A model generated the notes under the pieces. It was not told the origin of the DNA. It ran no database searches and saw nothing but the letters and a program-made list of their open reading frames with translations. A stretch of DNA of 64,000 bases from Escherichia phage BF15: the sequence record MW822007.1; one strand, given 5' to 3'. This document shows, piece by piece, positions 34,243 to 62,337 of the stretch. Made by a program: the position numbers and the translations under genes. The first letter of the stretch is position 1, and each line of letters opens with the position of its first letter.

Positions 34243-36060
34243 TCATTGGTGTTTAACCCTATGCATGATTTCTTTATTTTTACCGAGATTAAATCCGCGT
34301 TCGTTCGGATTTCCCAAATAACCACATGTTCTTCTTATGGTATTCATCTTTTTAGGATCAGTTTCTCCACAAATAGAACAAACAAATCCGTTTTCAGTAG
34401 GAGTCATTTCATGGGTACTTCCGCATGTAAAACATTTATCTACTGGCATATTAACACCAAAATAATCTAAATGTTGTGCAGCATAATCCCACACGGCCTC
34501 AAGACCTTTCAAGTTATTTTTCATATCAGGAAGTTCAACATAAGAAATGTGACCACCTGTCGCAATGAAATGATACGGCGCTTCACGAGAAATCTTTTCA
34601 AACGGAGTAATATTTTCTTCTACTGAAACATGGAAACTGTTAGTGTACCAACCTTTATCGGTAACATCTTTTACGCTTCCATATTTTTCCGTATCGAGTT
34701 TACAGAAGCGATAACAAAGGTTTTCAGCAGGAGTCGAATATAAACTAAAAGCAAATCCAGTTCTTTCAGTCCACTGTTTAAGATGAGCATTCATTTTAGT
34801 TAAAATTTCCTGTCCAATATCACGACCGACAAGAATATTCAATTCGTGAATACCAATGTATCCTAAAGACACTGAACTTCTACCGTTTTTAAATAACTCA
34901 ATTATGTCGTCATCAGGTTTAAGACGAACCCCGAATGCACCTTCTTGGTAAAGAATAGGAGCAACAGTCGCTTTAACTCCTTTTAAGGAACTAATTCTAC
35001 ACATCAAAGCTTCAAAACATAAATCCATTCGTTCATTAAATAGCTCAACAAATTTCTGTTCATTGAACTGTGTTCCAATATAAGAATCTAACGCGATGCG
35101 AGGAAGATTCAGTGTTACAACACCAAGATTATTACGTCCATCAAGAATTTCATTACCAGTCGAATCTTTCCATACGCTCAAGAAACTGCGGCAACCCATT
35201 GGAGAAACAGGAACAGATGAACCAGTGATAGCTTTATTGTTCTTAGCCGAAATGATGTCAGGATACATCCTTTTGCTTGCACACTCTAGAGCAAGCTGCT
35301 TAATATCATAGTTCGGATCGTCTTTATAAAGATTAACACCCTCTTCAACGAACATAACAAGCTTAGGGAAAATAGGAGTTATTCCATCACGACCAAGACC
35401 TTTAATACGATTTTTCAGAATTGCTTTCTGAATCATTCGTTCAGTCCAGTCAGTTCCCGTACCAAATGTAATTGTTACAAAAGGTGTTTGCCCGTTTGAA
35501 CTAAAGAGAGTATTTACTTCATATTCATAAGCTTGGAATGCATCGTATACGTCTTTTTCTGTTTTAGATTGAGCATAATTCAACGCATCAGCGATTTGCC
35601 ATTTTTCTGCATCCTCAATATGTTTTGCATAGGTGCGTTTAACATAAGGAGAAAGTACTTTATCTACATTCGCAAAAGTCGTTCCGCCGTATTGGTGAGA
35701 AGCAACCTGTGCAGTAATTTGTGCCATAATTGCAGTAGCAACGCCAATTGATTTAGGAGTTTCAATCTGCGCATTACCGAGCTTAAATCCGTTCTCAAGC
35801 ATTCCTTTTAAATCTACTAAACAGCAATTAGTAAATGGAAGAGCAGGGGAATAATCAATATCATGGAAATGAATAATTCCGCTTTCATGCGCTTTCATAA
35901 TAAAAGACGGGACCATATTTTTGGCAATGTGTTTAGACACAATACCAGCCATAAGGTCCCGTTGAGTTGGAAAAACACGAGAATCTTTATTAGCATTCTC
36001 GTTTAAAAGGTCTTTATCAGTTTTATGAATCAATCCTTCAATTTCTTTTTCAATTGTCAT
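34243..36060 (-). CDS. nrdD: anaerobic ribonucleoside-triphosphate reductase NrdD
   Basis: 605 aa contiguous ORF; C-terminal glycyl radical motif RTCGYLG; no intron. Confidence 0.95.
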   Translation of the reverse strand: MTIEKEIEGLIHKTDKDLLNENANKDSRVFPTQRDLMAGIVSKHIAKNMVPSFIMKAHESGIIHFHDIDYSPALPFTNCCLVDLKGMLENGFKLGNAQIETPKSIGVATAIMAQITAQVASHQYGGTTFANVDKVLSPYVKRTYAKHIEDAEKWQIADALNYAQSKTEKDVYDAFQAYEYEVNTLFSSNGQTPFVTITFGTGTDWTERMIQKAILKNRIKGLGRDGITPIFPKLVMFVEEGVNLYKDDPNYDIKQLALECASKRMYPDIISAKNNKAITGSSVPVSPMGCRSFLSVWKDSTGNEILDGRNNLGVVTLNLPRIALDSYIGTQFNEQKFVELFNERMDLCFEALMCRISSLKGVKATVAPILYQEGAFGVRLKPDDDIIELFKNGRSSVSLGYIGIHELNILVGRDIGQEILTKMNAHLKQWTERTGFAFSLYSTPAENLCYRFCKLDTEKYGSVKDVTDKGWYTNSFHVSVEENITPFEKISREAPYHFIATGGHISYVELPDMKNNLKGLEAVWDYAAQHLDYFGVNMPVDKCFTCGSTHEMTPTENGFVCSICGETDPKKMNTIRRTCGYLGNPNERGFNLGKNKEIMHRVKHQ

Positions 36061-36571: not shown

Positions 36572-37057
36572 TCAAGTATTGTAAAACATTTGATGCAATC
36601 GCTTATATTGCCGAATCATTTGGTCAGAAAAAGAAATTTGAGTTTCAAGCCATTCAATGTATTCTGCGGCAGCTTGCATCAGGTTACCTTCATAGCCATC
36701 GTTATTTTCTTGCGCAGCTAATTTAGCTAATGCGTATGAAATACGTTCACCTTGAAAATCGGCTTTAGGCTTCTGAACAACTTGATTAGTTCGCTCTACA
36801 ACTTCTTCAATTTCGCCATTTTCGACTGATTCAGTATTCCACAAACACCAATACGTAATTGGCTTATCGTAGATGTTAATAATCTTTCCGTCGGAAAGTT
36901 CAATTTCAATAATTCCAGTATCAGGCTCTATATCATCTTCACATTCTTTTGCAAGTTCACGAACTTTAAAGACAGTACCTGCACTAAGTTCCGGCCAGTA
37001 ATTACATAGCCCTGTATCAGCACGATTAATTCTAAACCACTTATCTACTGTAATCAT
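36572..37057 (-). CDS. pin: Pin-like protein (inhibitor of host Lon protease)
   Basis: 161 aa; size and position as T4 pin. Confidence 0.5.
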   Translation of the reverse strand: MITVDKWFRINRADTGLCNYWPELSAGTVFKVRELAKECEDDIEPDTGIIEIELSDGKIINIYDKPITYWCLWNTESVENGEIEEVVERTNQVVQKPKADFQGERISYALAKLAAQENNDGYEGNLMQAAAEYIEWLETQISFSDQMIRQYKRLHQMFYNT

Positions 37058-37179
37058 GTCCCATCTCCATATTAATTAAGTCATTTATCGTTGGTTCATT
37101 ATATACTGTTTCTTCATCAGTGTAAACCGGTTCTTCCGGCTCTGGCTCTACAGTTTCCCATCTAGCCGCCCACCAGGGT

Positions 37180-37374
37180 TTAACCCCGAAGCTTATTAAG
37201 TTCTTCATAATCAATCCAGGATTCTAATCCTGATGGCAAATCAGATTCAATTTCCCAAAGAAGTTCTTCAATTTTATGAAGACGATCTAATTCTTCAACA
37301 GGAATAGTAACCATTGATGGAGCTCTTGCTGCACTAATATCGTATATCATATTTACCCCAGTTTGACCATGCAA
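37180..37374 (-). CDS. hypothetical protein
   Basis: 64 aa ORF. Confidence 0.35.
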   Translation of the reverse strand: MHGQTGVNMIYDISAARAPSMVTIPVEELDRLHKIEELLWEIESDLPSGLESWIDYEELNKLRG

Positions 37375-37568
37375 TCACCGTATTTCCACTTAGAAATAGA
37401 CTTTTCACCATTAGAATAATAAACTTCGAGTTTAGCACGATTATTTTTAATTTGAATAACCTTGGCTGTCATCAAAGTTCCATACCCATAGTAAACTGCA
37501 ACTTCATCACCTACATATATCGCGCTTCCACGATAATCATGGATATAATCAGTTCCTTCGAGCATCAT
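37353..37568 (-). CDS. hypothetical protein
   Basis: 71 aa ORF. Confidence 0.4.
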   Translation of the reverse strand: MMLEGTDYIHDYRGSAIYVGDEVAVYYGYGTLMTAKVIQIKNNRAKLEVYYSNGEKSISKWKYGDCMVKLG

Positions 37569-38072: not shown

Positions 38073-38376
38073 TTTCTTCTCGGTCAAATCGGTGTTTACA
38101 ATGGCGACATTTATAACGAAGATTACTAGTCTGCCAATGGACCAATTGCACCTGTTCAGTTCCACATTCAGGGCAATTAGGAACGTTTTTAGAAGCGCGT
38201 TCGCGGCGTTCAACCATAACCATAATGGCATCCCAAGCAGGAGGTTTAAAGTCTAAATCGTCACAACCATGAATCTTTCCACGCATTTCCAAATCGTCTT
38301 CTTCACCAGCCATAATAATTTTAATTAGACTAGAATTACTTGAAGCTGCAATGTCTTCTAATAGACGCTTTTTCAT
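38059..38376 (-). CDS. hypothetical zinc-ribbon protein
   Basis: 105 aa; CPEC...CRHC pairs. Confidence 0.45.
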
Positions 38377-39299
38377 TTCAATACCTCAATAGCATTACGT
38401 AAACCATTTGCTTTTGCATTAAGAGCTTTTAACAATTTGGTGTGTTCTGCAATTTGGGCTTCAACTTCAATCAAACGAGCATTGAGATATTCGCGTTCTT
38501 CTTTCATAGTATCATTCCCATGATTGGATTTTGGCGTAGGTTTAAATTCACTAGGGTCCTTTAATTTAATAACAAATTTAGTTTCAAACAGTGAAAGACC
38601 ATAATTCTTATTATCATCAAAGGATTTGACTACATCCATATCAGATAATAACACGCGCAAATTATAAGCCAAAGAACTAATAGTTTCATTGTGTTTATTA
38701 GCTTCGCGTGGTTTCATATACGGAAGATTTTTATATATTTCATGCGGAGCACAAATGATAATTGACAATTCAAATTGTCCATTCTGGGACGATGGAGTGA
38801 ATTTAGCCGTAACCCAGTCTTTTACATTCACATTAATAGTACGGTTATCACCATGACAAAACAGTCTACGAGAATGCTTAAAAAGCATATTCACGTTATT
38901 ATTGAATTCGTGTGAAAATTCACTAGCAAATTTTTCTTTACTATCTTTAGAAAACCATTCTTCTAAATAAGTTCTTTTCACGTCGTTAATAATATTAAAT
39001 GTAACAACATTAGCATTTGATACATTAGTCTCAATGTAGCTTGGATACATAAATTTTTTAACATTATTAACAGCTATCACAGAAGATAGTAATCGGGAAC
39101 GTTTGAACCACTCGAGCAAAGAACCAAGAGAATGTGAATACGCATTTTGTGTATCTTTACAAATATGGTTTTCCCATCCAATATAGTCTAAAAAATCACG
39201 AAGAATATTATTGATTACTGCTCTGTGTCCTATCTGATAATTACGATGTTTAGTAATAAGACTGTCAAAATAATCAATATAATGTTTACGTGTTTTCAT
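38373..39299 (-). CDS. hypothetical protein, paralog family member A (C-terminal coiled coil)
   Basis: 308 aa; starts MKTR like member C; heptad-like C-terminus. Confidence 0.5.
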   Translation of the reverse strand: MKTRKHYIDYFDSLITKHRNYQIGHRAVINNILRDFLDYIGWENHICKDTQNAYSHSLGSLLEWFKRSRLLSSVIAVNNVKKFMYPSYIETNVSNANVVTFNIINDVKRTYLEEWFSKDSKEKFASEFSHEFNNNVNMLFKHSRRLFCHGDNRTINVNVKDWVTAKFTPSSQNGQFELSIIICAPHEIYKNLPYMKPREANKHNETISSLAYNLRVLLSDMDVVKSFDDNKNYGLSLFETKFVIKLKDPSEFKPTPKSNHGNDTMKEEREYLNARLIEVEAQIAEHTKLLKALNAKANGLRNAIEVLK

Positions 39300-39351
39300 G
39301 TTCTTCTCACTTGGTTAATGATTTATACTCCGAGCCATCCTTGGCTTTAAA

Positions 39352-40383
39352 TTACTTAATTAACTGTAAAGCTTGTTCCAGACGATCAAGACGATTAACA
39401 GATTCTTCCCAAATCTTTTTAGCCTGCTCATATTCTTTCTGCGCTTTATTAGAAATTTCTAGAACTTCCTTATAAGATTTTTCTAATGCAATAACTTCTG
39501 GACGAATTTCTATCGGTTCAGGTGAATCATCAAGACATTCCATTAGTTCCTCAAGGGTAGTTTCTTCTTTAGGAGTATTCACAATTTCATCACATTTTTG
39601 TTGATAAATTTCTTTATCAGTAGGTGAGTACGCGCACTTTACTTCACGAAGACTAATTACAATTTTATATCCTTCCCAACCGCATATATTCTTAAAAGGA
39701 TATGTATGAATATTTTCTACTGTTTCCATACAAAGTAATGCGGTCTCTAATTGACGAGTTATAGTGCTAGCAATTGAGAAAAATTTATTAATATTCTTTT
39801 GGTTAGTTTCTGGTGTAAAAAATCCATAATTCACAAAAATAGCTACTTTATTTTTATCAAGTTCATATTCTTTTATGATAATCATATCAGAAGCCAAAGG
39901 ATGAATTTGACGATAATCGCCATAACATAATTTAGAAGCTGATTTTAGAATTTGCTTCTTAAAAAGTCTGAAATTACTAATCCAACGACGAGTAAAAATA
40001 TTCTCAGGGTCTTCTTTGACATTAAGATGATAAGAATTAACATCACCGAACCAATTATATCCTACTACATCTTTGGTTCGTTTAATTTCTTTCCCAAAAT
40101 TACCAAGAATATCCCGATTAACCAAATATGAAAGAAGACGAGACTCTTTAAAGGTTTTCTTGATAACATCTTTATCTACACGGCTAGAAATTTTACGAAT
40201 TTCATGAATAAATTTAGTAGAAGAAACAATACTTGCATCAACACTATTGAGCCATTGATTGATAATAGAAAGAACACTATTTTGGCCAAACATCGGTATA
40301 GCTTTATCATCAATAACGCTATTGAATGATTTGATATATTCGTTACGAGTCATATTAATCTCCTCAGTAGAAAGTAAGAACAT
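39352..40383 (-). CDS. hypothetical protein, paralog family member B
   Basis: 343 aa; shares ...FRLFKKQILKSASKL-type block with C and D; coiled-coil tail. Confidence 0.5.
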   Translation of the reverse strand: MFLLSTEEINMTRNEYIKSFNSVIDDKAIPMFGQNSVLSIINQWLNSVDASIVSSTKFIHEIRKISSRVDKDVIKKTFKESRLLSYLVNRDILGNFGKEIKRTKDVVGYNWFGDVNSYHLNVKEDPENIFTRRWISNFRLFKKQILKSASKLCYGDYRQIHPLASDMIIIKEYELDKNKVAIFVNYGFFTPETNQKNINKFFSIASTITRQLETALLCMETVENIHTYPFKNICGWEGYKIVISLREVKCAYSPTDKEIYQQKCDEIVNTPKEETTLEELMECLDDSPEPIEIRPEVIALEKSYKEVLEISNKAQKEYEQAKKIWEESVNRLDRLEQALQLIK

Positions 40384-40410
40384 TATACCACATCCTTGTG
40401 ACGAAGTAAA

Positions 40411-41439
40411 CTAGTTTAGTGCATTTAGTGCATTGTTCAGTTTAGAACGTTGCTTTGTCAGATTTTGAACCCTTGACTGAGCTTGTTCTAACGCCTTTTC
40501 AGCTTCTAGCACTTCATTGGTCGCTTTAACGAGTTCATCATCTACTGCCTTAAGGGACTTCTCAATCGCATCCGCGTGCCATTTTTCAACAGGTTTAAGA
40601 CTCGGATTTTCAATAGGAAGAAAATTCACTTTATTGAATTTCCATGCATCCTTATTACCTGAACTATACATCCAAAATTTAGGATCGTTTGATAAGTAAT
40701 TGGATAAATTTAAATTTAAGTTATCTTGTACTTCTTGCTTTTTCTCTTGTGTAACTTCGTCCTTTCTCAAAAAATCATATTTAAATGAAACGATCATATC
40801 AAGTTCATATGATGTTGTATCTAACTTAAATCGTTCAAAACGAGGTAAAATCTTAGATTGAACAGCAGCAACAACATCCATATACTTAAATGCTTCTGTT
40901 AGCTGTGACTTAAGACATTCACAAATTGAAAGAGAATTTTTTGTATTAGGTTTAAAGCTAATTCGTGCAGTTCTATTATTTTCTTTTAACGGTCTTACTT
41001 CCATCTGAAGAGTATAACCATCAAATTTCAGATTCTTTAAGTTAATATCAGAACCTTTTAATCGACTAGCAGTAGACAAAATTTGCTTTAATTGTCTACG
41101 GAACAGAGCAATAAATCTCCATTCAATACGATAATGATTTGGATTGAAAAATCCAGATGATAAATCGACCTTACTTTGACCAACGCCTTGAACAAATAGA
41201 GGATTTTTATAATCAATAGTTTTACAGAAATCGGTGAGCTGTTCACGAGCAGTCATTTGAGTAATATACCCTGCTTTACTAAAATTACGCACCCATTCAC
41301 TGCTATTCGTATACTTAAAGTGATGAATAACACGATTAACTTTATCGGGGTCTAAATTATTTTCACACAAAAATGTCATAACATCACGAGTATAGCTGGC
41401 ATTACGAACCATATCTTCAATTTGAGAACGAGTTTTCAT
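40411..41439 (-). CDS. hypothetical protein, paralog family member C
   Basis: 342 aa; block ...FRRQLKQILSTASRL; coiled-coil tail. Confidence 0.5.
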   Translation of the reverse strand: MKTRSQIEDMVRNASYTRDVMTFLCENNLDPDKVNRVIHHFKYTNSSEWVRNFSKAGYITQMTAREQLTDFCKTIDYKNPLFVQGVGQSKVDLSSGFFNPNHYRIEWRFIALFRRQLKQILSTASRLKGSDINLKNLKFDGYTLQMEVRPLKENNRTARISFKPNTKNSLSICECLKSQLTEAFKYMDVVAAVQSKILPRFERFKLDTTSYELDMIVSFKYDFLRKDEVTQEKKQEVQDNLNLNLSNYLSNDPKFWMYSSGNKDAWKFNKVNFLPIENPSLKPVEKWHADAIEKSLKAVDDELVKATNEVLEAEKALEQAQSRVQNLTKQRSKLNNALNALN

Positions 41440-41447
41440 GGTGTTCC

Positions 41448-42353
41448 TTAAGATTTAAGTAAATCAACAATTTTAATTAATTTTTCACGTTCAGATTTAG
41501 CTTTACTACTCAGTCCAGATAGTCTGAAAATTTCATCGTCATATTGTTGAATAGAAATATTCAGCTCTTCAATCTGTTTATTAAAATAATCAATTTGTTC
41601 AGAATGTTTTTCGTTACTACGAACTGGCACAGGTTTTGTAGGCAATTTAGTTGAACTGGATTCATCCGGGCGATAAATTAAAATACAATTTGAACCAATT
41701 GGGCATTTAGCACCAGACACATATTCTAGTGTTCCAGCTTCTTTTAAAACTTCAAAAGCTAAACAGAGATGATGACCCATATTGACATAATCTGTAGAGT
41801 GAGCTCTGACGTAATAATCATCTCCACGAGTACTAAATTTAAAGCATTTAAGGTCTTCTGTATTATTGGTCTTAAAAATCATTTGTTTATCTAGACCTTT
41901 AGCTAATCGAGCGCCCAATGCTAATAATCGTCGTTGATTTTCCCACAAATCCGCAATCATTTGATCGAATGATAATTTCGGCATTAGTCGACCATAAAGG
42001 TCATATCCTTTATTATAATTACGAAGGATTTCACTCGCATTAATACGAGACAATGCTCCAATTTTATTAAGGGCTTTCATAATGCGATTAGATAAACTCA
42101 TTCCAGATCCGCTTGTTCGCTGTAAATGTTTTTCTAATCCAAAGCCAATATCAACTTTAAACTTATCTAAAATTTCGGCATGAACATCTCTGTCAATAAC
42201 ATTCAAATCCAAAGTTGGGTTAAATCTATGAAAAAATTTATCTGGCTCTCCACGACGAAATACAGTCCATTCATTCATCATTTTTTTATTAACTAAAGAT
42301 TTAATTACTGCATTGACATTATTAATTACTACTGACATATTTTCCTCACTCAA
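41448..42353 (-). CDS. hypothetical protein, paralog family member D
   Basis: 301 aa; block ...QRRLLALGARLAKG; coiled-coil tail. Confidence 0.5.
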   Translation of the reverse strand: MSEENMSVVINNVNAVIKSLVNKKMMNEWTVFRRGEPDKFFHRFNPTLDLNVIDRDVHAEILDKFKVDIGFGLEKHLQRTSGSGMSLSNRIMKALNKIGALSRINASEILRNYNKGYDLYGRLMPKLSFDQMIADLWENQRRLLALGARLAKGLDKQMIFKTNNTEDLKCFKFSTRGDDYYVRAHSTDYVNMGHHLCLAFEVLKEAGTLEYVSGAKCPIGSNCILIYRPDESSSTKLPTKPVPVRSNEKHSEQIDYFNKQIEELNISIQQYDDEIFRLSGLSSKAKSEREKLIKIVDLLKS

Positions 42354-42802: not shown

Positions 42803-43330
42803 TTATGCGAGTACCGTCTTTAACCGTTCTTCAAACTTCCGAAGAGTATTTTGGCGTTCAGCTCTTTGCTTTTTGTAAGTTTCAATACGCTCTGAAATGA
42901 GAGTGTATCGTTCATTTACTGATTCTTTCATAAAATCAGGAATTTCACGAGAAGCTTTAATCTCGTCAAATTTATCAATAACAGCTTGCTCTTCAGCAAT
43001 TAAGTTATCATACATCAAAATATCTTTCTTGATGAACTCAATATCTTCTTGAGTTACACGAGATAATTTAGATGCTTTATCCTTTTTGTACTGTTCATTA
43101 GTATCACGAGACCAGTGTAATGTACGATTTTTATTCGTATTTTTGTAAATTTCTACAATACCAATCTCATCGATAATAACGATCCAATTCCAACGAGATT
43201 TGTAAATTTGCCCTCCGTCAACCGTGATTTCACCTCCGATTGAGATGTCATTAAAGAACTTGCTTTGCGCTTCAGATTTAAATTTACCATCATTGTAATT
43301 TACCAAGTTGAAAATATCTTTAGCGTTCAT
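42803..43330 (-). CDS. hypothetical protein
   Basis: track ORF trimmed to ATG 43330 (MNAKDIF...) with GGAGG SD; track N-terminus is promoter read-through. Confidence 0.45.
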   Translation of the reverse strand: MNAKDIFNLVNYNDGKFKSEAQSKFFNDISIGGEITVDGGQIYKSRWNWIVIIDEIGIVEIYKNTNKNRTLHWSRDTNEQYKKDKASKLSRVTQEDIEFIKKDILMYDNLIAEEQAVIDKFDEIKASREIPDFMKESVNERYTLISERIETYKKQRAERQNTLRKFEERLKTVLA

Positions 43331-43775: not shown

Positions 43776-44495
43776 TTAGGATTCTTCTAAATGTCTTTTC
43801 TGAAAAGTTGATACCATACTACGATACGGTTCATTTGGATATCCGTGTTTTATAGCTTCCTTTGTAAATTTTCTCCATCCACATTTAGTTTCTTTCCAAA
43901 GCTCGAATAATTCATCTTCATACTGCCATATAGTTAAATGAGAACGCTTTGCAGCTTTAATTCCATTAATATGCTTTTCTTTTACTGCAGGATTGCTTAG
44001 TTTCTTTTTAATAATATTACTAACTTTTCTAACAAAAACCGGGTCCTTATATCGTTGCGAAGTTTTTATTGAAGTGTTTAATTTAGCTTCCGGCGTGGAT
44101 GTGACCTCTTTCATCTTTTTCTTCATATGCTGTATATGATTAGGATTTTTCCATAAATTTATAGAATGCTTTTTGCATTTTATCCTAGTTTCATCTGCAA
44201 CCTTTCCTCCTTCACCCCCGTATGACAGGTTAACACAGTTTTTTCCATATTTCAATTTACCTGCCATGATATATAATATTTCAGCTTGTACCATTTTATC
44301 ATAATTATCAAAAACTTCTAAAACCGTTTTTGACAATATGTGGTCATTTGACACTTTTACACGTTCTATATAATTTCCACTACCAACATACGAATCATTG
44401 ATATTATTAGTTATATGTCGACCATAATAATATTTCTTAACGCCAGTCTTTAAATTTAATATTTCAGTTTTATAGATAGTAAAATATTTTTTCAT
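43776..44495 (-). CDS. GIY-YIG homing endonuclease (Seg-like)
   Basis: 239 aa; YYYGRH...YVGSG motifs; NUMOD-like basic repeats. Confidence 0.65.
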   Translation of the reverse strand: MKKYFTIYKTEILNLKTGVKKYYYGRHITNNINDSYVGSGNYIERVKVSNDHILSKTVLEVFDNYDKMVQAEILYIMAGKLKYGKNCVNLSYGGEGGKVADETRIKCKKHSINLWKNPNHIQHMKKKMKEVTSTPEAKLNTSIKTSQRYKDPVFVRKVSNIIKKKLSNPAVKEKHINGIKAAKRSHLTIWQYEDELFELWKETKCGWRKFTKEAIKHGYPNEPYRSMVSTFQKRHLEES

Positions 44496-45460
44496 TTTAA
44501 CAATACCGTTTCAGCGATTTCTTCCCAATAGTTTTTGTCGGTCATAATAAAGTCAGCAAGATAAAGAGCAGTACGCAGTGAAACATTACGTAAACGGTTA
44601 ACATTGACTTTCATCCATGATAATGCTTTATAAGTTTCTTCATCAGAAAGACCGCGTTTTTGCATCATGTCAGTTGAAAGAATAACATCTTCAACCCTGA
44701 CCATAATTTCTTCATTAGTGTGAACACCCAAATCTAAATAAACTGAGCGGGACACTAATGCTTGTAAATGTGGAGCAAGTTTAGTACCACGGTCTAATTC
44801 GCGGTCAATATCAACGTTTGTGATAAAAACAATCGTTCCTTTAAATTCAAACTCACGGTCAATGCCTTTTTCTTCTAAGTAAGAAGATGCAGTGCTCCAG
44901 CAGACTTTACGGGTCTCTCCAGTGTCCAGAGCAGCTTTCAGAAGATTAAGAATGTCCATATCAGAGAAAACATCCACATCATCAATCAAAAGGACAGAAT
45001 TCTCTTCACGATTATTCCAAAGCTGCTCATAAAGACCGATACCAGAGATTTTACCATTAATGCTTTTATATTCAATGTATCCAATATCATTTGCTTTATT
45101 TAAAGCTTTATCTAAAGAATACGTTTTACCAATACCCGCCGCACCAGAGATAATTAATGAACGAATATTTCCATTAATAATACCATTCGTCATCATTCCC
45201 ATAACATTAAATCTTTTATTAATGCGGGTTTTCATATCTTCATATGATTCTTTAACTTCTTCAACTTTTACACCATCATATGAAATATCTGATTTGTAAA
45301 CCCAAACACCGCGACGTTTACCGTCAATTTCAACAAAAACTTTACCATCTCCTTGTGCATCTACCGGAGCATTATCTGGGAACCATTCGCCTAAGAGCTC
45401 AAAAGTTCCAGAGATTTCTTTACCGAAGTAGATACCCTTATTGATAGTTACAGTTTTCAT
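44492..45460 (-). CDS. P-loop ATPase (AAA-like)
   Basis: track ORF trimmed to ATG 45460 (MKTVTINKG...) with GGAG SD; Walker A GAAGIGKT, Walker B LLIDDVD. Confidence 0.55.
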   Translation of the reverse strand: MKTVTINKGIYFGKEISGTFELLGEWFPDNAPVDAQGDGKVFVEIDGKRRGVWVYKSDISYDGVKVEEVKESYEDMKTRINKRFNVMGMMTNGIINGNIRSLIISGAAGIGKTYSLDKALNKANDIGYIEYKSINGKISGIGLYEQLWNNREENSVLLIDDVDVFSDMDILNLLKAALDTGETRKVCWSTASSYLEEKGIDREFEFKGTIVFITNVDIDRELDRGTKLAPHLQALVSRSVYLDLGVHTNEEIMVRVEDVILSTDMMQKRGLSDEETYKALSWMKVNVNRLRNVSLRTALYLADFIMTDKNYWEEIAETVLLK

Positions 45461-45497
45461 TTTATTCTCCAAATCCGTATCAGTAGTTGATAGTTGT

Positions 45498-45527
45498 ATA
45501 GTACCATAAAGCTTTATGCTTGTAAAC
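45498..45527 (-). promoter_or_regulatory. T4-type early promoter (ATPase gene)
   Basis: minus strand GTTTAC-N18-TACTAT; leader near-identical to copy at 18092-18155. Confidence 0.6.
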
Positions 45528-45552
45528 CGTTCTGTGAAAAAATTTTTGAAAT

Positions 45553-45576
45553 AAAAAAGGGAGCCCGAAGGCTCCC
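45553..45576 (-). terminator. intrinsic terminator after nucleotidyltransferase-like gene
   Basis: GGGAGCC-UUCG-GGCUCCC hairpin plus U run. Confidence 0.65.
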
Positions 45577-45578
45577 TA

Positions 45579-46592
45579 TCATTTATAATAACTTCGGTGG
45601 TTTTCAAGATAAACCCTCTCAAGGAAGTCATCCCAGAAACTCATGTCTACTTTTTGCTGCATACCGTTCTTAGAAGCTTTAATGGATGCTGCTTCTACTT
45701 GATCGACAACATCTTCCAAAAACTCTTGAACAGTTTTAAATGGATGTTTACCCAACTTCACGTCGAGAATAAATGGAGCGTCTTGAAGTGGATAAATCAA
45801 GTCGCCAGTTTTGTAAATTTCCAATAGTTGAAGTCCACCACGACAAGCATGACTCAGAGCTTTCCAGTCAATACCTTCGTTGGCTTCGGCCTTACGAGCG
45901 CGTTCACCGTATTCAGCATCAAGTTTATTCAAAGACTGCTTAAGCTCAATAAGAGAAAGCGTTGTCTGATATTTACGACCCAACACAGTATAGAACGTTT
46001 GCGGGCCTGTTTTCTCATGATTATGGAACACCCATTCACAGAATTCGTTTTCTGGAAGACGATGCTTAATATCTTCAACTTTAGTGCGACGCTGCTTAAT
46101 GGAACCATCTTCTTGGTAATCAACCCACTGGTCAGGGATTTGATTAACTACTTTCAATACATCACGCAATGCAGCCAAACGAGAACCCTTGACACCGTAT
46201 TTAGAAGCTTGCTTGCGGACATATCCTAAATAGGATTTCATGTTAGTCGTATAGAACCGAGAACGATTGTCTTGGATAAATTTCCATACATCAGGTAAAT
46301 CAGATTTAACCACTAGTTCAGGTGGAGTGTGAAGCATATCCAATGCTACAGTTTCACCATCTGCTGCTAATTTAAAGAAATACTTAAGACTGTATAGTTC
46401 ATGGTCAATATCATCTTTAGTGTTTTTAGATGATGTGTTGTTAGTGTTTTTACTCATATGCTCTTTAACATTTCCGATAAGAATATCGCGAGCAGGAGGA
46501 ACAAAGATTTCTTTAAAATCCACATCAGATTCTGGAGTAGAAGTTCCATAAAGATGACTACCAAAATAGCTTTTCATTACTGTTTTCATCAT
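45579..46592 (-). CDS. putative nucleotidyltransferase-fold protein
   Basis: 337 aa; N-terminal GS-x10-DVD motif typical of Pol-beta-type nucleotidyltransferases. Confidence 0.5.
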   Translation of the reverse strand: MMKTVMKSYFGSHLYGTSTPESDVDFKEIFVPPARDILIGNVKEHMSKNTNNTSSKNTKDDIDHELYSLKYFFKLAADGETVALDMLHTPPELVVKSDLPDVWKFIQDNRSRFYTTNMKSYLGYVRKQASKYGVKGSRLAALRDVLKVVNQIPDQWVDYQEDGSIKQRRTKVEDIKHRLPENEFCEWVFHNHEKTGPQTFYTVLGRKYQTTLSLIELKQSLNKLDAEYGERARKAEANEGIDWKALSHACRGGLQLLEIYKTGDLIYPLQDAPFILDVKLGKHPFKTVQEFLEDVVDQVEAASIKASKNGMQQKVDMSFWDDFLERVYLENHRSYYK

Positions 46593-61671: not shown

Positions 61672-62337
61672 TTAAAATTTCATTTTTCGACCTTTAAACC
61701 ATCCTTCTGGAATTGGATCAGTTTTCTTAATACGTTTAGAAACTTTTTCATCTAATGAATGAATCCACATCATACCAAATTGGGAATTCTTTTCACCTTG
61801 TTGGTGTTTATTTCTGGCGTGAGATTCTTTCATTTTATTAATAGTTTCAGGAGTATGAGTCTTACCCAAGAAAGATTTAGTATTTAAAAATTTCTCTCTA
61901 TACTTAGGATTATCCCAAAGCTGTTTAAACCTTTCTGAACCCATTTTACGATATTTTTCTTTAAGGTCTGGGTCGTTCTCAAATCTGGTTTTAAAAGCGG
62001 CAGCTCCTTTTAAGGAAGCTTCTTTCTTTTTATCCAAATATTCTTTAGTGTTTAAATGGTCCCAACCACCTTCACCACCTAATTTCAAATTATAAACATC
62101 AGGGCGCTTTAAAAACTCTTCAGTCACAATATTCTTTTCTGACTCAAACATAGAGGTTTTATCGTCAAAGAACTCTAATATTTCTTTAGAAAAATTTTCT
62201 ATACCATACTTATCTTGGGCTCTTTTTAATAATTTACCAGAACCCATATATCCATCATCTAAATTTTCGGTAGAATGAGCGCCTATATAGATTTTATTAT
62301 TAATTTTATTTGTTATTTTATAAATGTAATGGAACAT
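61672..62337 (-). CDS. segB: GIY-YIG homing endonuclease SegB
   Basis: 221 aa; KIYIGAHS...YMGSG; inside tRNA cluster as T4 segB. Confidence 0.75.
   Translation of the reverse strand: MFHYIYKITNKINNKIYIGAHSTENLDDGYMGSGKLLKRAQDKYGIENFSKEILEFFDDKTSMFESEKNIVTEEFLKRPDVYNLKLGGEGGWDHLNTKEYLDKKKEASLKGAAAFKTRFENDPDLKEKYRKMGSERFKQLWDNPKYREKFLNTKSFLGKTHTPETINKMKESHARNKHQQGEKNSQFGMMWIHSLDEKVSKRIKKTDPIPEGWFKGRKMKF

Follow-up and report, generated by a model that had tools for sequence, protein, structure and literature searches.

Four diverged paralogs, nrdC.3 to nrdC.6, in a T4-like phage and their possible role in counter-defense

We studied four consecutive open reading frames (ORFs) in a 64,000-nucleotide stretch of DNA from Escherichia phage BF15 (sequence record MW822007.1), which we will call the window. 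An initial annotation, made from the sequence alone, had described them as a tandem array of diverged paralogs that lies in a variable, accessory part of the genome, and we agree. The four ORFs lie on the minus strand at exactly 38373-39299, 39352-40383, 40411-41439, and 41448-42353; by the annotation of phage T4, they are the orthologs of nrdC.3, nrdC.4, nrdC.5, and nrdC.6. We show that they belong to one superfamily, apparently the product of an ancient tandem expansion of a single gene. Because one copy is known to disarm the host immune protein Dsr1, we regard the other three as good immune-evasion candidates. Overall, the array probably encodes related non-enzymatic proteins, made early in infection, that inhibit host immune proteins by binding to them: counter-defense has been shown for nrdC.5, and we infer it for the other three.

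The direct evidence concerns nrdC.5. An evolved clone of T4 with compensatory deletions failed to infect ECOR17, and disrupting the host's SIR2 gene dsr1 restored infection (PMC9391042). T4 nrdC.5, supplied in trans, restored the plating of the deletion mutant on MG1655 with the dsr1 of ECOR17 (Srikant, Guegler and Laub, eLife 2022, PMC9391042), and nrdC.5 was described as an early gene (PMC9391042). So, of the roles that the initial annotation had expected (host range, anti-defense, or exclusion), anti-defense is established for nrdC.5, as the T4 gene (98.5% identical) restores infection of E. coli that carry Dsr1, whereas for nrdC.3, nrdC.4, and nrdC.6 paralogy suggests it. The annotation of these ORFs in T4, the role of nrdC.5, and the grouping of nrdC.3 with nrdC.4 were already known. 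What we add is the link that joins all four into one family.

The four genes and their start codons

The window is from a T4-like phage: the 4-kb stretch with the array shares 95.7% identity with phage T4, and the 506 phage records that it matches are nearly all from Tequatrovirus. At least 80% of the array is retained in 461 of these 506. The genes had gone unrecognized in the initial annotation, yet they are easily identified from T4, whose proteins are 90.6% (nrdC.3), 98.5% (nrdC.4), 98.5% (nrdC.5), and 97.7% (nrdC.6) identical. The order of transcription is nrdC.6, nrdC.5, nrdC.4, and then nrdC.3. The genes, and a candidate promoter among them, are as follows.

38373..39299, minus strand: nrdC.3 ortholog (paralog A, 308 amino acids), the last gene of the array; ORF; phrog_1435 at 4.5e-101
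39352..40353, minus strand: nrdC.4 ortholog (paralog B, 333 amino acids); corrected start; phrog_1435 at 1.2e-167
40411..41439, minus strand: nrdC.5 ortholog (paralog C, 342 amino acids); ORF; Pfam DUF7235 at 2e-125
41448..42338, minus strand: nrdC.6 ortholog (paralog D, 296 amino acids), the first gene of the array; corrected start; phrog_2257 at 1.1e-151
40382..40410, minus strand: candidate early-type sigma-70 promoter in the gap between nrdC.5 and nrdC.4, TTTACT-17-TATAAT with an extended -10 TG; matches the consensus at 10 of 12 positions

The lengths that were first given (308, 343, 342, and 301 amino acids) are correct for the ORFs, but the second and fourth starts should be moved, which gives proteins of 333 and 296 amino acids. 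For nrdC.4, the ORF listing ran to an ATG at 40383, which falls within the -10 box of the candidate promoter, GTTTACTT-N-TGgTATAAT; the corrected start is the ATG at 40353, which has a GAGGAG ribosome-binding site and gives an N-terminus of MTRNEY. For nrdC.6, the listing ran to a TTG at 42353, and the corrected start is the ATG at 42338, which has a GAGGAA ribosome-binding site. With these starts, the gaps between the genes are 52, 57, and 8 nucleotides. The proteins had been said to share an MKTR or MTR start, which is true of three of the four; nrdC.6 begins with MSVV instead. An N-terminus of the form M(K)TR-x-(E/H)Y is kept even in very distant members of the family.

One superfamily

At the level of DNA, no repeat links the four genes: we found short matches at the level of chance, with the sole exception of a similarity between the starts of nrdC.3 and nrdC.5. 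These two regions (39288-39306 and 41428-41446) are 84% identical over 19 nucleotides, and the similarity consists of the ribosome-binding site plus ATGAAAAC-CGT, which encodes MKTR. As there is no repeat at the DNA level, the duplications must be old. The proteins are less than 25% identical to one another, and BLASTP is nearly blind to their relationship: the best pair, nrdC.3 with nrdC.4, has E = 0.013, and the other five of the six pairs are not significant.

Comparisons of profiles, which we built from database homologs and from eight related phage loci, do bear out the family resemblance. With hhalign, nrdC.3 aligned to nrdC.4 over 211 columns (probability 98%, E = 2.7e-14), nrdC.4 aligned to nrdC.5 over 243 columns (93%, E = 3.2e-7), and a merged profile of nrdC.3 and nrdC.4 aligned to nrdC.5 over 254 columns (95%, E = 2.7e-8). 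A merged profile of those three families then aligned to nrdC.6 over 137 columns (90-94%, E = 2e-6 to 2e-7), and this alignment spans the N-terminal half of nrdC.6 (residues 5-146), outside of its tail. All of these results exceeded their controls. For the link to nrdC.6, the observed score was 51.6, as compared to 19.1 with nrdC.6 reversed, at most 17.0 in 30 shuffles of columns, at most 32.0 in 30 shuffles of blocks, and 13-17.5 for the unrelated neighbors nrdC.8, nrdC.10, and nrdC.11. Alignment therefore finds significant similarity among all four genes, via the merged profile in the case of nrdC.6. Also, a single protein from Klebsiella phage Marfa, gp80, is matched separately by the hidden Markov models (HMMs) of nrdC.3 (7.5e-4), nrdC.4 (5.7e-10), and nrdC.5 (7.2e-11).

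The initial annotation had quoted a conserved internal block, and the quoted segments align column for column in the hhalign alignments.

38838..38894, minus strand: shared internal helix block of nrdC.3, VNMLFKHSRRLFCHGDNRT, residues 136-154 (hhalign)
39907..39972, minus strand: shared internal helix block of nrdC.4, FRLFKKQILKSASKLCYGDYRQ, residues 128-149 (hhalign)
41038..41103, minus strand: shared internal helix block of nrdC.5, FRRQLKQILSTASRLKGSDINL, residues 113-134 (hhalign)
41880..41939, minus strand: shared internal helix block of nrdC.6, NQRRLLALGARLAKGLDKQM, residues 134-153 (hhalign)

Could the resemblance be a chance effect of low-complexity coiled-coil tails in four unrelated genes? 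The failure of BLASTP for five of six pairs and the weakness of the comparisons that used the tails alone would fit with this. But the significant alignments are in the N-terminal and central regions, they beat the reversed, shuffled, and unrelated controls, one Marfa protein is matched by the HMMs of three families, and the predicted layouts of nrdC.5 and nrdC.6 (described below) agree. For nrdC.3, nrdC.4, and nrdC.5, chance resemblance is already refuted, and for the array as a whole we consider it very improbable.

We did not find a further member of the family elsewhere in the window. One candidate that we considered and rejected was nrdC.8 (42803-43330, minus strand, 175 amino acids). It has a long charged helix at its C-terminus and no significant profile similarity to the array paralogs: in hhalign, three of the families gave P values of at least 0.03, and nrdC.6 gave 0.005 when the tails alone were compared, over just 12 columns.

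Known families and the thioredoxin label

The claim that the proteins contain no known domain was half right: none of the domains has been characterized, but Pfam does hold families for these genes. The only match in a Pfam scan of the four ORFs was DUF7235 (PF23882), which covers all of its 307 profile positions (1-307) in nrdC.5 (E = 2e-125, 418.7 bits, with a cut-off of 30) and has no match in nrdC.3, nrdC.4, or nrdC.6 at E ≤ 1. From precomputed annotations of the homologs of nrdC.4 and of the nrdC.3 part of a fusion protein (P0056, discussed below), PF26897 (Phage_T4_Y04OP) corresponds to nrdC.3 plus nrdC.4, and homologs of nrdC.6 that are 96-98% identical to it carry PF26899 (Phage_T4_Y05B). 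Similarly, PHROGs joins only nrdC.3 and nrdC.4 (phrog_1435), while nrdC.6 is phrog_2257.

None of the broader searches connected the family to a described fold, to an enzyme motif, or to a relative in cellular organisms. Sequence profiles from the PDB and NCBIfam had nothing meaningful to say about these proteins, and the single match to the defense models of PADLOC was a 13-bit coiled-coil similarity to BrxC. When we used HMMER to compare the merged profile of nrdC.3, nrdC.4, and nrdC.5 to 1.84 billion representative proteins, there were 18 matches, and those we examined were phage homologs, fragments, or chimeras. The family is restricted to T4-like phages (Straboviridae). When nrdC.3, nrdC.4, and nrdC.5 are aligned, only three residues never vary (T3, R4, and F71), which argues against an enzyme.

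In many deposited genomes of T4-like phages, nrdC.3 to nrdC.6 and neighboring genes are labeled as thioredoxin. Taken at face value, these labels would suggest a role in redox chemistry or nucleotide metabolism, as would the location of the array between nrdC and nrdC.11, which is a nucleotidyltransferase. We give this idea almost no credence. None of the four translations has a Pfam match to thioredoxin or glutaredoxin (E ≤ 1) or contains CxxC, and the predicted folds (helical, then a hairpin-helix-hairpin) are unrelated to thioredoxin. Nor are the array genes essential: nrdC.1-6 are among the large fragments that are missing from viable T4 mutants in a study of genome reduction (PMC9825161), so others have shown that this block is dispensable on laboratory hosts. 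The thioredoxin label is an error that spilled over from the locus name nrdC.x, and correcting it should matter for annotation, as it is widespread.

Predicted structures

We obtained AlphaFold2 models for nrdC.6 (mean predicted local distance difference test, or pLDDT, of 77; predicted template modeling score, or pTM, of 0.65) and for nrdC.5 (pLDDT 69, pTM 0.56); the alignment for nrdC.5 was padded with sequences of nrdC.4 and nrdC.3. The elements come in the same order in both models: a helical N-terminal domain, a helix between two beta hairpins (hairpin-helix-hairpin), a low-confidence linker (residues 229-285 of nrdC.5 and 228-243 of nrdC.6), and a C-terminal helix. Judging from these models, each protein of the array is predicted to comprise a globular head (the helical domain and the hairpin-helix-hairpin), a flexible tether of about 15-55 residues that is rich in proline and charge, and, at the C-terminus, an amphipathic helix that is about 45-56 residues long.

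When we compared the model of nrdC.6 to viral models with Foldseek, it matched its own orthologs and then uncharacterized proteins of 304-335 amino acids from other T4-like genera. The nrdC.5 model had matches in Erwinia phage Cronus and Klebsiella phage Mineola, along with weak matches (E of 0.015-0.07) to tail-completion and tail-terminator proteins. One Mineola protein, A0A2Z4QAR2, is matched by both models (2.3e-4 for nrdC.6 and 1.8e-6 for nrdC.5), and Mineola_080, which has the same length as A0A2Z4QAR2, belongs by sequence to the group of nrdC.3, nrdC.4, and nrdC.5 (1.1e-8 with the nrdC.5 HMM).

The C-terminal helices are as follows.

38376..38501, minus strand: C-terminal amphipathic helix of nrdC.3, residues 267-308; heptad score 0.72
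39355..39501, minus strand: C-terminal helix of nrdC.4, residues 285-333, ending in ...RLEQALQLIK; heptad signal weaker than in nrdC.5
40414..40584, minus strand: C-terminal 56-residue helix of nrdC.5, residues 286-342, about 7 heptads, ending in ...KLNNALNALN; AlphaFold2, heptad score 0.90
41451..41606, minus strand: C-terminal helices of nrdC.6, residues 245-296, ending in ...KLIKIVDLLKS; AlphaFold2

The heptad-like tail of the initial annotation is clear in nrdC.5 and in nrdC.3 (scores of 0.90 and 0.72) but weaker in nrdC.4 and nrdC.6 (about 0.6 each). In the models, the tail of nrdC.5 is a single helix (286-341; block means of pLDDT from about 70 to 91 and mostly 82-91), and the tail of nrdC.6 is two helices (246-272 and 278-295). 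As expected for a coiled coil, the heptad pattern continues for four heptads or more within a predicted helix. All four tails close with a similar motif, ...R..L..A(I/L)..LK.

Copy number, mosaic alleles, and selection

The number of copies varies from one to four among related phages, as the initial annotation had expected:

Tequatrovirus (typical): 4 copies
Dhakavirus and Gaprivervirus: 3 copies (nrdC.6-, nrdC.5-, and nrdC.4-like)
Mosigvirus: 2-3 copies
Marfavirus and Jiaodavirus: 1 copy
Tegunavirus: very divergent relatives, dispersed

Across the T4-like phages, the order (nrdC.6, nrdC.5, and then nrdC.4 or nrdC.3) and the location beside nrdC.2 are conserved. Within Tequatrovirus, Shigella phage SP21535 has a three-copy variant (locus 1501-2457) that lacks nrdC.4, and its hybrid protein begins with MFLLSTEEINMTR and continues with KHYIDYF. 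Here nrdC.4 was lost when its 5' end recombined with the similar 5' end of nrdC.3. The array is degenerate in a metagenomic Tequatrovirus contig (4570-5900): nrdC.4 is absent, and an nrdC.5 that is truncated to 115 amino acids is followed by the 299-amino-acid P0056, in which the middle of nrdC.5 is fused to the C-terminal half of nrdC.3. Another protein, P0237 (173 amino acids, at 120-641 of an 803-nucleotide metagenomic contig), has an unrelated N-terminus of 118 amino acids joined to the exact tail of nrdC.5. P0237 may reflect a genuine domain swap or a chimeric assembly; it may be an artifact because its N-terminus has no match in the phage collection.

nrdC.3 itself comes in distinct types of alleles. 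The first ~70 and the last ~40 residues are 90-100% identical between types, and the C-terminal helix is 100% conserved between the two types, whereas the center is just 30-60% identical, with a synonymous divergence (dS) of 0.77. Conserved ends around a divergent center indicate that cassettes have been exchanged.

The initial annotation had proposed that the paralogs diverged under selection. This is not demonstrated: relative to T4 and RB7, the gene-wide ratios of nonsynonymous to synonymous divergence (dN/dS) are 0.23 and 0.38 for nrdC.3, 0.09 and 0.25 for nrdC.4, and 0.05 and 0.13 for nrdC.5, and the ratio is 0.10 for nrdC.6, for which we compared to RB7 only. Values of 0.05-0.38 mean that purifying selection is preserving these genes and that they are not decaying. 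The mosaic alleles of nrdC.3 are the sole sign of diversification.

Nevertheless, we considered whether nrdC.3, nrdC.4, and nrdC.6 might be redundant or decaying copies that are retained solely by their linkage to nrdC.5. There are hints of decay. In the T4 reference record AF158101 (9134-9290, corresponding to 41448-41600 of the window), nrdC.6 has a 1-nucleotide deletion (GAGCTG-ATATT instead of GAGCTGAATATT), and the frameshift removes the C-terminal helix and leaves 275 amino acids, whereas the gene is intact in the window and in RB7; this is either a mutation of the laboratory strain or a sequencing error. Also, nrdC.4 is missing from SP21535, the metagenomic contig has a broken nrdC.5 and a fusion of nrdC.5 to nrdC.3, and the entire block can be deleted. 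On the other hand, all four genes are under purifying selection (at dS of 0.1-0.8), 461 of the 506 matching records hold at least 80% of the array, and Dhakavirus, Gaprivervirus, and Mosigvirus have intact orthologs of nrdC.6, of nrdC.5, and of nrdC.4 or nrdC.3 at 22-50% identity. So we consider it improbable that the three genes are passengers.

How might the array work?

Our favored interpretation, which we consider probable, is that the proteins of the array are made early in infection and act as inhibitors by binding, with the head of each protein binding a host immune protein. Early expression would fit with the candidate early-type promoter ahead of nrdC.4. For nrdC.5, the most plausible target of the head is Dsr1. 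The sensor of Dsr1, which is common to Avs7, recognizes the major capsid protein of the phage (2026 Nature paper, PMC13581612), so nrdC.5 may block either the capsid-sensing domain or the NADase before the capsid protein appears, late in infection. The C-terminal helix would oligomerize the protein, so that several heads could engage an oligomeric target with avidity. nrdC.3, nrdC.4, and nrdC.6 would have other targets, either other defense proteins or other variants of the Dsr1 type, and the divergent center of nrdC.3 may mark the surface that determines specificity. It is relevant that gene 49.2 of phage T6 is an inhibitor of OLD (PMC13096335). In T4, gene 49.2 is about 1 kb from the array, so this region already holds counter-defense genes.

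Several observations weigh against this interpretation. Direct binding, oligomerization, and avidity are all our inference. The structural models are of moderate confidence (pLDDT of 77 and 69), and the alignment for nrdC.5 was padded. The membership of nrdC.6 rests on the merged profile and on the predicted structures because the comparisons of single families are weak: hhalign gives P = 0.008 for nrdC.5 with nrdC.6, and nrdC.3 and nrdC.4 do not match nrdC.6 significantly. Comparisons of the tails alone are not clearly above the reversed-sequence controls, which leaves the common origin of the tails unproven. There is no signal of positive selection in the gene-wide dN/dS among close relatives. 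And T4, as represented by its reference record, carries the frameshifted nrdC.6 with no obvious harm in the laboratory.

The main alternative is that nrdC.5 alone is a counter-defense gene, and that the other three play a different part in host takeover, for example by binding and redirecting the host's housekeeping proteins or by acting in competition between phages and superinfection exclusion. The early accessory genes of T4 include many factors for host takeover and exclusion, so such roles would not be surprising. Also, nothing in the literature that we searched connects nrdC.3, nrdC.4, or nrdC.6 with a defense system, and because the paralogs are less than 25% identical, their targets could be unrelated. 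(We found nothing published on these three genes, nor did we find further work under alternative spellings, the Pfam accessions, or DUF7235.) But the four proteins have a common predicted layout, and their genes are transcribed as one unit that includes nrdC.5, whose activity against Dsr1 is proven; this argues for related roles. Furthermore, which copies are present, and how many, differs between host-range groups and even within a genus, a pattern typical of accessory functions that serve on particular hosts and not of general takeover. The phage can also do without the block on laboratory hosts. On balance, we think that this alternative is unlikely.

We would give about the same modest weight to a more elaborate version of our favored interpretation, in which the proteins are modular immune antagonists with a head, a tether, and a coil. 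Every head would be directed at its own bacterial pattern-recognition sensor, with nrdC.5 blocking Dsr1 and the remaining paralogs blocking other sensors that respond to conserved phage proteins, and the similar tails would form homo- or hetero-oligomers. The result would be a multi-headed complex whose composition shifts as genes are gained or lost or as alleles are swapped.

Through their paralogy with nrdC.5, the shared predicted layout, and purifying selection, about 3 kb of "hypothetical" sequence in T4 becomes three specific candidates for counter-defense, nrdC.3, nrdC.4, and nrdC.6. The analysis also points to a possible site of specificity (the divergent center of the nrdC.3 alleles) and to the C-terminal helix as a separable part. 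The tandem expansion of an anti-defense gene would clearly illustrate how phages diversify one inhibitor scaffold against several host immune proteins.

Neighboring genes

The surroundings of the array differ from T4 in several places. Homologs of T4 gp49.2 and gp49.3 are absent, and two small ORFs (64 and 71 amino acids) lie between 49.1 and nrdC instead (37041-37568). On the other side, between nrdC.9 and nrdC.10, there is an ORF of 239 amino acids (43776-44495, minus strand) that is absent from T4 and is 98% identical to the "site-specific intron-like DNA endonuclease" of RB7. It has no Pfam match at 1e-3, and a relative that is 29% identical is found at about 61882-62295. The ortholog of nrdC.10 (44492-45631, minus strand), an uncharacterized accessory gene that adjoins the array, has weak P-loop matches (AAA_14 at 1e-4 and nSTAND3 at 5e-4). 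Finally, nrdD is a single uninterrupted ORF of 605 amino acids (34243-36060, minus strand), so this phage does not have the group I intron with I-TevII that splits nrdD in T4.

Comparison with known systems

The closest known system is NrdC.5 of T4 itself, the anti-Dsr1 protein. The third ORF of the array is its ortholog, with 98.5% identity over 342 amino acids, a full-length DUF7235, and, as in T4, a location between nrdC.6 and nrdC.4. The remaining ORFs of the array are less than 25% identical to this protein and are in different Pfam and PHROG families. Among those families of unknown function, nrdC.3 and nrdC.4 are both members of PF26897/phrog_1435, where they already form one family, and nrdC.6 is a member of PF26899/phrog_2257. 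Thus, Pfam and PHROGs keep nrdC.5 and nrdC.6 apart from nrdC.3 and nrdC.4, whereas our comparison of profiles and structures joins all four.

The protein DSAD1 from phages of the SPbeta type, which inhibits the SIR2 defense protein DSR2 (PMC10973363, PMC11087589), may be viewed as a functional analog of nrdC.5: both would be small non-enzymatic phage proteins that neutralize a defense-associated sirtuin. They differ in that DSAD1 is from siphophages of Bacillus and its target senses the tail tube; no homology between the two surfaced, in the course of searches that were not dedicated to this question. Within T4, the closest parallels are the dmd-tifA-adfA cluster (the "anti-TA island") and gp49.2, which, like the array, are early, dispensable, and clustered in variable regions, and which each neutralize one host defense. 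Those are unrelated small proteins, whereas the array is one gene family in four tandem copies.

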